Source: Myxococcota bacterium
Lineage (GTDB): Bacteria; Myxococcota; Kuafuiibacteriia; Kuafuiibacteriales; Kuafuiibacteriaceae
Assembly (NCBI GenBank): GCA_036337945.1
Contig: JAYZDF010000004.1
Span: 1 to 64,000 of the forward strand
Reading direction: 5' to 3'
DNA: 64,000 bases
Shown here: piece after piece, positions 48,238 through 50,205 of the stretch
Numbering within the stretch: position 1 is the stretch's first letter
Layout of the letters: each line of letters begins with the position of its first letter
The notes under the pieces: generated by a model
The model's input: the letters and a program-made list of their open reading frames with translations, nothing else
Told to the model about the DNA's origin: nothing
Databases searched by the model: none
Made by a program: the position numbers and the translations under genes

Positions 48238-50205
48238 TTAGTTATACGTCGTCGGGACGCAGGCGCTGACGTAGCTTTGAGTTACGCCGTCAATCAGGAC
48301 CGCTGAACTGAGCACTTTGCAACGGAAACCATTATCGCAATCTCCATCTCCGTTGCATAAATCGCTACACGCATTGAAGGTTGGATCGCAAAAGCCTGAT
48401 CGACATTGATTATCTGCGGTACAGCTGCTTCCCGAAAGCCCATTTCCATGAGCCCCGTCCACACAGGCTTGGACCAAATTAGGTTGGTACCGAAGGCATG
48501 TTCCGAGTAACTGCTCGGCACATAAAGTGTAATCGATCATTCTGCAAACTTGGTTACCGACACAACTATTTGAACTTCGACAAAGTTTAGCGCACTTGAA
48601 GATACCCGTGTTTACTGAGCCGACGCACGCACCACTTGCACACTGGCTATCGAGTGAGCAGGTACTTCCTTCAGGAAAGCTCCCTTGTGGTCCATCGCAA
48701 GAAGCGATGTACGTTGCAGGTGCCGCTTCATTCCATCGGCAGAAGCCACCTCCGCAATCATTGTCTTCGCTGCACGTTTCTACGCACATATACGAGTTCT
48801 GCGCACAGAGTCCTGATTTGCATTGTCCAAAGTCGAGGCATGGACTGCCTGGGCTTCCGGCAAAACTGACACTAATATTGGTCGCTTGAGTATACAGAGA
48901 ACTTGCTACACACATTTTTGCGCCGACGTAATTATAGCAAGTATAGTTAGCGGGACATTCTGCGCTCGATCCGCAGGCTTGTACGCATTTCTTGCCGAGG
49001 TTAGGTCCGAAATCAAAACAGGAACTTGATGCGCAATCTGTGTTGACGGTGCAATTTGCATTCAGTGCGGCACCTCCCGTTGCAGGTGGTGTTTGGTTTC
49101 CGCAGCGGCCGGTTAGTGTATTACACGTTTGCCCGTTAGGGCATCCTGTTGACAGGCAGCTCGGAGCACACATGTTGGTCGTTTGATCACAGATCGTTTG
49201 AGGTGGGTTACATTGGGCGTCTTGAGTGCAGGTATTGACCGGTGGAGTTCCCATTTCACAACGTCCGGTGGAGGGATTACAAATATCGCTGCCTGTACAA
49301 GAGACGCCACCAACTTGATTACATCCCCCGACACATTGGCCTGACTCGCATACTGTTTGCGGGGGATTGCATTCAGAATCTTGTACGCACGGAGCGGGAA
49401 CGTTTACACATCTGCCTGTATTGCTGTCGCAAACTTCATTCGCTCCGCAGGTTATCCCGCCGACTTGTCCGCAGCCTGCTACGCACATATTGCCTTCACA
49501 AATAGAAATGGGTGCGCCGCACTGGCTATCGTTTACGCAGGTGTTACCTACGGGTTCGCATCGACCTGTTCCCGCGTTACACTCTGTTCCTGCTCCGCAA
49601 GTTAGTCCACCAGGACTCGAGCATCCTGCAACGCAGCTTGCGTTTTCACAAATGGTTTGAGGCGGTAAACAATCAGAATCAAGGTTGCATCGAGGAAAGC
49701 TAGCGTCTTGACACTGCGACGCAACGCATTCTTGCCCAGTCGGGCAATGTATATTTTCGATGCACTCGACGCAAACATTAGCGGTTTGATCGCAATATCG
49801 CCCTGAGCAGTTTGAATCATCAACGCAGGTCCTTGTGCCATCCACACAGAGTCCAATAGAAATTTGGCAGCGTTGGTGAGGAGGGCAGTCAGTATCCAAT
49901 CGACAGTTCGCGAGTTCGATTTCTTGGCAAGTTCCTGTCGCTTGGTCGCAATATTGCTGATCGCCGCAATCTGTATTGTTCGTGCAGGTTGGGCCTGAAG
50001 GAAGACCGTTAGCTTGGCATATATTTGCCACGCAAACCTCGGCCGCCAAGCAATCTTTAGATGTTAGACAAGTGTTGCCGCCCCCCGTGCCGGAGCATGC
50101 TCCAAGCAAAAGAGCCAGTGCGGTCAGCCACAATTGCATACCGTGGTTTACCAAAAGTGCTTTGCGTACATCTCGCGCGTTCATTCTGTTCCTCGCAAAG
50201 GACAT
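48238..50205 (-). CDS. large lipoprotein made of tandem cysteine-rich repeats
   Basis: Lipobox LLLGACSG; at least four ~50-aa repeats with 7 Cys each (C-x3-[DS]-x-C-x6-C-x4-C-x3-C-x6-C-...-GRC), plus other Cys-rich modules; ~14 % Cys. Confidence 0.6.
   Translation of the reverse strand: MSFARNRMNARDVRKALLVNHGMQLWLTALALLLGACSGTGGGNTCLTSKDCLAAEVCVANICQANGLPSGPTCTNNTDCGDQQYCDQATGTCQEIELANCRLDTDCPPHQRCQISIGLCVDGTRTCVDDSNCSGRYCDQTANVCVECIENIHCPTGQECVASQCQDASFPRCNLDSDCLPPQTICENASCVAGCSSPGGLTCGAGTECNAGTGRCEPVGNTCVNDSQCGAPISICEGNMCVAGCGQVGGITCGANEVCDSNTGRCVNVPAPCVQDSECNPPQTVCESGQCVGGCNQVGGVSCTGSDICNPSTGRCEMGTPPVNTCTQDAQCNPPQTICDQTTNMCAPSCLSTGCPNGQTCNTLTGRCGNQTPPATGGAALNANCTVNTDCASSSCFDFGPNLGKKCVQACGSSAECPANYTCYNYVGAKMCVASSLYTQATNISVSFAGSPGSPCLDFGQCKSGLCAQNSYMCVETCSEDNDCGGGFCRWNEAAPATYIASCDGPQGSFPEGSTCSLDSQCASGACVGSVNTGIFKCAKLCRSSNSCVGNQVCRMIDYTLCAEQLLGTCLRYQPNLVQACVDGAHGNGLSGSSCTADNQCRSGFCDPTFNACSDLCNGDGDCDNGFRCKVLSSAVLIDGVTQSYVSACVPTTYN

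Follow-up and report, generated by a model that had tools for sequence, protein, structure and literature searches.

A family of cysteine-rich, lipobox-bearing proteins from uncultured Myxococcota with a putative stalk and distal binding domain

The 64,000-nucleotide stretch of DNA analyzed here (the window; positions 1 to 64,000 of contig JAYZDF010000004.1, assembly GCA_036337945.1, from a Myxococcota bacterium) carries a gene for a cysteine-rich lipoprotein. The complete coding sequence occupies positions 48238–50205 (-), with its stop codon at 48238–48240, and specifies 655 residues counted from the first ATG. The gene is real, intact, and under strong purifying selection, and its product appears to represent a previously undescribed family restricted to uncultured Myxococcota. 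We favor the interpretation, at a probability of roughly 45%, that the protein is a lipid-anchored "stalk plus binding head" lipoprotein of the envelope or surface, with an adhesion, receptor, or matrix-organizing role. Cys-rich surface proteins of the Myxococcota, such as TraA, CglB, and CglD, serve in kin recognition, membrane exchange, and gliding adhesion.

The N-terminus comprises a predicted signal peptide and lipobox (residues 1–37; 50095–50205 (-)), in which a positively charged n-region and a hydrophobic h-region lead into the sequence RDVRKALLVNHGMQLWLTALALLLGA-C37. Lipoprotein status was assigned from these two regions together with the motif [LVI][ASTVIG][GAS]C, judged by inspection and regular expression only. 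With the lipobox L-L-G-A-C37, the protein reads as a bacterial lipoprotein precursor and predicted substrate of signal peptidase II, with the mature protein predicted to begin at a lipidated Cys37. The lipobox Cys is kept in all sequences of a 28-member orthologue alignment, and the helix at residues 12–33 of the AlphaFold2 (AF2) model lies within the signal peptide. Position +2, where Lys is a signal for retention in the inner membrane, is occupied by S, G, D, N, or E. Cys accounts for 87 residues, or 13.3% of the 655, close to the approximately 14% of the original prediction; Gly, Ser, Thr, Asn, and Ala are also abundant. Cys modules make up the entire mature sequence, with one Cys in the lipobox, 20 in the N-terminal units, 32 in the middle repeats, 32 in the C-terminal modules, and two in an additional hairpin, leaving 86 beyond the lipobox.

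Three types of module are found. Five N-terminal four-Cys units (residues 46–165, C46–C165; 49711–50070 (-)) have the spacing C-x5-C-x4/5-C-x4/6-C, with one β-hairpin predicted per unit. They are followed by four tandem eight-Cys repeats (residues 173–368, C173–C368; 49102–49689 (-)) with an exact 50-residue period, the spacing C-x5-C-x6-C-x4-C-x3-C-x7-C-x5-C-x6-C, and the family consensus C..D..C.pP...vCE.gQCvpGC.q.GGlqC.ggtvCn..tGRC. The C-terminal region (48259–49053 (-)) consists of four longer eight-Cys modules (residues 385–432, 456–503, 516–562, and 595–649), with the spacing C-x5-C-x-SG-x-C-x6/10-C-x3-C-x5-C-x4/5-C-xn-C between C385 and C649, and a hairpin containing C570 and C581. The protein terminates in ...SYVSACVPTTYN, ending ...ACVPTTYN, and has neither a hydrophobic helix nor an Arg tail at this end. 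Every module opens with C-x2-[DN]-x-[DQE]-C. The eight-Cys pattern occurs four times, against 0.0018 expected from 5000 composition-preserving shuffles, and a generic four-Cys pattern is found 22 times where 2.6 ± 1.8 would be expected.

These features bear out the original prediction of a lipobox lipoprotein composed almost entirely of Cys-rich modules, for which disulfide-type β-hairpin mini-domains are now predicted. The shorter N-terminal units and SG-type C-terminal modules that it placed on either side of the repeats were likewise found, five and four in number, respectively. Its four consecutive repeats of about 50 residues stand, with eight Cys each rather than the seven it named; the pattern as it was written itself holds eight, and is accurate apart from two spacings that are off by one.

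The three module types are related to one another. Comparison by hhalign of the middle repeat with the C-terminal module gives 41 collinear columns (probability 86%, E 5e-6), while the middle repeat and N-terminal unit (92%, E 6e-7) and the C-terminal module and N-terminal unit (88%, E 3e-6) match at similar levels. The mature protein can therefore be described as an array of approximately 21 copies of one ancestral four-Cys unit. Repeats at the same position in different species are 57% identical, compared with 49% for different positions within one protein, and concerted evolution of the repeats is weak at most.

Numerous short open reading frames overlap the gene on both strands (19, of 40–97 codons), as would be expected if the region were an artefact, whether a low-complexity stretch with a frameshift or assembly error or a reading frame that does not code for protein. 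This explanation is refuted. The original prediction of a dense cloud of spurious reading frames proves overstated, as the count in the 2-kb bin is 23 and bins in the window range from 9 to 25, which makes the number of overlapping frames normal for the window. A total of 648 codons align without gaps to those of an 88% identical orthologue on contig L022, with a nonsynonymous divergence (dN) of 0.078, saturated synonymous divergence (dS), and a dN/dS ratio of about 0.03. The repeats share only about 50% identity, at the protein and DNA levels alike; repeat-driven mis-assembly is therefore unlikely and repeat collapse is not an issue. Independent assemblies also give full-length orthologues, 24 of the 27 aligned being 637–715 residues long and the remainder (P0026–P0028) 611–623.

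The protein probably starts at Met8, which would give a product of 648 residues. At this position (50182–50194 (-)) a GAGGA sequence (50194–50190) resembling a Shine-Dalgarno motif is separated by a 5-nucleotide spacer from the ATG (50184–50182), whereas the first ATG is preceded merely by AAGG, one nucleotide upstream. Met8 is preferred because of this spacing and because the closest orthologue (P0001, 88% identical) is called at the equivalent Met, yielding 648 residues.

A sequence search covering 5.8 billion proteins identified 49 relatives. Approximately 30 of these are full-length and orthologue-like (610–715 residues, 38–88% identity); all are annotated as "hypothetical" and derive from metagenomes or metagenome-assembled genomes labeled as Myxococcota, Myxococcales, or "Deltaproteobacteria". 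The exact window protein has no entry on record. A pattern-based scan of GTDB species representatives gave 17 loci, exclusively from uncultured Myxococcota, the best match being 42% identical; the window's own species was not among these loci. Every Cys is invariant over the orthologue alignment. The main length difference among orthologues corresponds to a single 50-residue repeat, with five copies in most and four in the subclade of the window protein, and essentially all orthologues hold an even number of Cys, 86 or 94, beyond the lipobox. Genomes typically hold one full-length copy and one paralogue that shares the stalk only; no paralogue was found inside the window. Single-copy occurrence, synteny with housekeeping genes, strong purifying selection, and a fixed architecture together suggest a conserved envelope component, not a fast-evolving toxin or adhesin. 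The predation role that had been suggested has no support. As for the adhesin- or toxin-like character originally proposed, an adhesin or a surface or matrix role is plausible, while a toxin finds no support.

In the model that we favor, the protein would be exported by the Sec pathway and lipidated at Cys37, giving an extracytoplasmic lipoprotein whose 86 remaining Cys would be oxidized in the periplasm to approximately 43 disulfides. This estimate is made because the Cys count is even, as fits complete pairing, because the protein is predicted to be exported to the periplasm, and because of the hairpin models and the precedent of TraA. With 13% Cys, the residues could instead act as ligands in thiolate form or buffer the redox state, and the protein would then serve in metallothionein-like metal sequestration in the periplasm or in redox chemistry, and a MopE "putative metal-binding motif" is present in some distant relatives of the C-terminal modules. 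That motif, however, sits in other regions of other proteins and is absent from the window protein, which contains very little His (0.6%) or Met (1.4%). The even Cys number, the regular spacing with one predicted β-hairpin per unit, and export to an oxidizing compartment also argue against free thiolates, as does the interpretation of the homologous TraA repeats as disulfide-bonded (PMC3325183, PMC12045341). We consider a metal-binding or redox function highly unlikely.

AF2 models were built from the orthologue alignment. The full model (mean predicted local distance difference test score, pLDDT, of 80) shows one short helix turn and one β-hairpin per four-Cys unit, and the C-terminal 284 residues modeled alone reach a pLDDT of 90 and a predicted template modeling score (pTM) of 0.84. 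Foldseek searches of the PDB with the full and C-terminal models returned no significant neighbor. Local matches of about 30 residues were found to maurocalcin (template modeling score, TM, 0.64; root-mean-square deviation 2.2 Å), the spinach trypsin inhibitor SOTI-III, and atracotoxin, with E-values of 0.8–9, and colipase and Dkk4 (E=1.4) were also weakly matched. A search of PDB sequences with the family profile was negative, giving only a chance match to Cyanovirin-N (E 0.28).

Since the only structural resemblances are these local matches to inhibitor-cystine-knot peptides, and one orthologue gives a weak WAP match, the protein might be thought to string together knottin-like modules with inhibitor or toxin activity, acting as a multi-headed protease inhibitor that protects the envelope or as a predation effector. 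All of the matches, however, have E-values of about 1 or worse and are Cys-driven, and no reactive-site-loop motif was identified. The protein is also lipid-anchored rather than freely secreted, and its single-copy gene, conserved synteny, and very low dN/dS are unlike those of arms-race effectors. An inhibitor or toxin array is thus improbable.

Under the stalk-plus-head interpretation, the membrane-proximal two thirds of the protein, with its five single and four 50-residue double units, would constitute a stiff, acidic, disulfide-held stalk resembling the one proposed for TraA, nearly devoid of aromatic residues or a hydrophobic core. The sequence of this part has an isoelectric point of about 4 and contains 3 aromatic residues in 335, compared with 21 in 283 for the C-terminal part. 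The C-terminal 284 residues, with four enlarged double units and long aromatic-rich hairpins, would form a defined distal domain, whose most likely ligand is a polymer, the matrix, or a component of the cell surface. Paralogues P0034–P0046 keep the lipobox and the N-terminal Cys-rich array and have the C-terminal region replaced by pre-peptidase C-terminal (PPC; PF04151) repeats, so the lipoprotein design appears modular, a "stalk with interchangeable tip". It is because paralogues make this exchange, and because the C-terminal module is also fused to secreted proteases, that the region is taken as a distal binding domain. By analogy with the precedents of CglD and CglB in Myxococcus, the lipoprotein is probably located at the outer membrane or cell surface. 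Stalk rigidity, C-terminal binding, and disulfide formation are all features that we infer. Paralogues of this design (P0034–P0046, and those at loci L011, L012, L013, and L015, match regions 8001–9083 or 1919–2809) have three to five PPC domains.

The main rival to this interpretation gives the molecule a mechanical role throughout. It would be a rod without a specialized head, a strut, spacer, or coat component that spans the periplasm or lies at the surface and that spaces the envelope or forms a disulfide-cross-linked protective layer. Several observations that favor such a rod, or that otherwise sit uneasily with a dedicated head, weigh against the stalk-plus-head interpretation. All module types are homologous, and the C-type modules, which occur in long arrays (P0067) and as linkers from matrixin domains to MYXO-CTERM-like tails, may be part of the stalk, in which case the protein would have no separate head. 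Conservation is highest in the middle repeats, at 43% identity over non-Cys positions compared with 32% for the C-terminal part, which is not expected of a purely passive spacer. The nearly fixed repeat number (four or five) and exact 50-residue period would suit a molecular ruler, and a single-copy, syntenic, strongly conserved gene is what a core envelope part would show. No recurrent partner gene was found at the loci examined, so no pathway is indicated, and the similarity to TraA appears weak, every TraA-related match lying below its curated threshold. Against a plain rod, the C-terminal region is compositionally distinct, aromatic-rich, and built of longer hairpins, and is predicted as a defined unit (the pTM of 0.84 given above). 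It is also exactly this region that the paralogues exchange for PPC binding domains, a swap that implies a functional distal module. We regard the headless rod as possible, though less probable than the stalk-plus-head interpretation.

The C-terminal region belongs to a much wider set of proteins. A profile of this region matched 1027 clusters at E<=1e-3 and 338 at E<=1e-10, each cluster being a representative at 50% identity. In a first group, four-module C-terminal domains follow stalks of variable length, many with lipoboxes; a second comprises proteins of about 360 residues with little or no stalk; and a third consists of long homogeneous arrays, such as P0067 (1516 residues, 15 matched stretches). 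In the fourth, matrixin (Peptidase_M10) proteins P0128, P0137, and P0150, the modules separate the catalytic domain from a MYXO-CTERM-like tail. These three are HExxHxxGxxH metalloproteases with tandem C-type modules and a tail composed of a Cys, a hydrophobic helix, and an Arg-rich end, and look like surface-tethered proteases, with the module serving to link or to bind. The C-module regions had no match in Pfam, NCBIfam, or the PDB, and Myxococcales is the sole organism name attached to the proteins that contain them. It is tempting, if somewhat speculative, to regard residues ~375–655 as representing a disulfide-rich domain family that has not been described before and whose fold the PDB does not contain, serving as a general binding or presentation module of Myxococcota surfaces and, in combination with the stalk, as a clade-specific receptor or adhesin of the core envelope. 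Its settings are the lipobox-anchored stalks, the long arrays, and the MYXO-CTERM-like-tailed matrixin proteases described above.

Members of a subgroup of C-domain proteins of about 365 residues are found in the conserved order TPR protein, Cys-rich protein, PALP enzyme (L023, 5135–7113; L024, 5033–7095). In this subgroup, an overlap between the start of the Cys-rich gene and the stop of the TPR gene hints at translational coupling. The contexts of the distant C-domain proteins P0085, P0166, P0204, and P0208 are unrelated and contain no recurring functional partner.

In the window, the gene order is S41-type peptidase, FHA protein, PdxA, HEAT protein, hypothetical protein, Zn-ribbon/CT398 protein, tRNA, CMD, RNase P RNA, the Cys-rich gene, Sua5, NuoL-like protein, SAM_HAT protein, and Fe-S assembly protein, and this order recurs in L002, L004, L007, L008, and L022. 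Sua5 precedes the Cys-rich gene on the same strand with a 48-nucleotide gap. The sole promoter-like motif on that strand is upstream of Sua5, in a scan that does not rise above chance; counts of promoters and terminators were no higher than the shuffled expectation. The RNA of bacterial class A RNase P (47758–48164 (-); 280.7 bits, full length) lies 74 nucleotides downstream of the Cys-rich coding sequence, before the CMD-family gene. A tRNA gene (46330–46402 (+); Rfam tRNA, 73 bits) lies between a gene for a 204-residue hypothetical protein and the Zn-ribbon/CT398-like gene.

In 7 of 10 full-length loci, the Cys-rich gene has the NuoL-like gene directly beside it or one gene away. A functional link between the two was considered and rejected because the entire neighborhood is syntenic, and the adjacency is read as inherited gene order, not functional coupling. 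The NuoL/Mrp-antiporter-like gene (661 residues; Proton_antipo_N, Proton_antipo_M) overlaps a SAM_HAT_N/C gene by 16 nucleotides (51318–54103 (+)) and stands alone, with no other nuo or mrp genes nearby. Pairing of a NuoL-like protein with a SAM hydroxide adenosyltransferase is unusual, and is also seen in L002 and at the P0023 locus. A TraB-like partner for the Cys-rich gene was rejected as well: the genes downstream of it in L001 and L003 (535–552 residues) are mutually unrelated and not TraB-like, and the window has the RNase P RNA at that position. In L003, a Nif11-like leader-peptide precursor gene of the ribosomally synthesized and post-translationally modified peptide type (9473–9976 (-); TIGR03798, 38.6 bits) is directly upstream of the distant homologue P0030, and a TSP3-repeat protein is encoded downstream. 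A large polyketide synthase, a phosphopantetheinyl transferase, and a short-chain dehydrogenase are encoded approximately 4–8 kb from the Cys-rich gene at L001 (1–1774) and the P0023 locus.

A surface-protein theme based on Cys-rich repeats is already known from myxobacteria, and the lipoprotein opens no long-standing question. If the favored model holds, the same principle of a disulfide-stapled stalk is used in uncultured lineages with a different anchor, an N-terminal lipid, and no known functional head. What is new is the C-terminal module, which is unannotated despite its wide spread and merits a Pfam or NCBIfam model; as a putatively compact and confidently predicted domain, it is also a target for structure determination. 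The lipoprotein is in addition a candidate core envelope or surface marker of its Myxococcota clade.

No Pfam or NCBIfam model matched the window protein at its curated cut-off. DUF7107 (PF23416; 20.0 bits, cut-off 24.6), Dickkopf_N (PF04706; 19.2 bits, cut-off 25), and DUF5885 (PF19232; 15.7 bits, cut-off 33.2) all fell below threshold, as did TIGR04201 (Myxo_Cys_RPT), which matched residues 144–165, within the fifth N-terminal unit, at 18.2 bits (E 0.002, cut-off 25). Among the 28 orthologues, TIGR04201 matches 11 at E<0.01, with a best value of 6.4e-7 and 17–20 bits for those checked individually. Dickkopf_N matches 15 of the 28 (E<0.01, best 5.5e-4), DUF5885 15, and DUF7107 14, and some relatives pass the DUF7107 cut-off, such as P0085 with 25.1 bits. 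The TraA model NF033759 has no match to the window protein at E<=10; it matches the stalk of P0024 through Cys-rich model positions 347–466, with 22.6 bits against a cut-off of 750. Membership of TIGR02232 or EGF was rejected, as neither was listed at E<=10 in the Pfam and NCBIfam scans, in which HMMER filters may drop very weak matches. The scans of the window protein also gave no PA14 or other non-Cys-rich domain. The original statement that the protein has no obvious named family is correct at curated thresholds and misses the distant relationship to the TIGR04201/TraA repeat that the 11 orthologues reveal. On this sub-threshold sequence similarity, the Cys-rich modules appear distantly related to the TraA stalk repeat.

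The nine Cys repeats of Myxococcus xanthus TraA, which have been proposed to form a rigid stalk presenting a PA14 domain (PMC3325183), were the source of TIGR04201, and AlphaFold analysis of the TraA Cys-rich region has described β-hairpins stiffened by dozens of disulfides (PMC12045341). Like TraA, which has more than 70 Cys, the window protein is a predicted extracytoplasmic, lipid-anchored protein of the Myxococcota with tens of Cys in short tandem units. These units are likewise predicted as disulfide-stiffened β-hairpins, and the stalk proposed for TraA would sit between an anchor and a distal domain (PMC3325183, PMC12045341). In contrast to TraA, the window protein lacks a PA14-like variable domain and a MYXO-CTERM tag (Cys, transmembrane helix, and Arg-rich tail), and is instead anchored through its N-terminal lipobox, which reverses the polarity. 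No traB-like gene (β-barrel, TSP3, OmpA) neighbors it in the window or at the L001 and L003 loci. The 50-residue eight-Cys repeat and the C-type module have consensus sequences of their own, and strong conservation, not polymorphism, marks the window protein.

CglD and CglB are N-terminally lipidated, surface-exposed, Cys-rich proteins of the M. xanthus gliding machinery (bioRxiv 10.1101/2023.10.19.562135). CglD has a disulfide-dependent fold, as the window protein is predicted to have, and an EGF-like "Cys-rich stalk" (bioRxiv 10.1101/2023.10.19.562135). However, CglD has only 4.1% Cys and is built around VWA/MIDAS and Ca-binding TSP3 domains. The window protein has none of these domains and is not matched by the NCBIfam model gliding_CglD. 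Dickkopf_N, DUF7107, and DUF5885 have a similar Cys spacing and give the sub-threshold matches described above, and the distant relative P0033 carries the NCBI name "Dickkopf N-terminal cysteine-rich domain-containing protein". These are, however, eukaryotic, viral, or fungal models of unknown or unrelated function, and the similarity is largely Cys-driven. Knottin and colipase folds provide the best, though non-significant, local structural matches of single modules, with TM scores of up to 0.64 over 29 residues. The knottin fold is defined by three disulfides in knotted I-IV, II-V, III-VI connectivity. Knottins differ in being free peptides of 30–40 residues with three disulfides, whereas the window units contain four or eight Cys and are fused in a 618-residue array. 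While it belongs to neither the TraA nor the CglD family, the window protein would most resemble the stalk part of TraA or CglD in its mode of action, and it is best filed as a further form of the myxobacterial surface-protein theme based on Cys-rich repeats.

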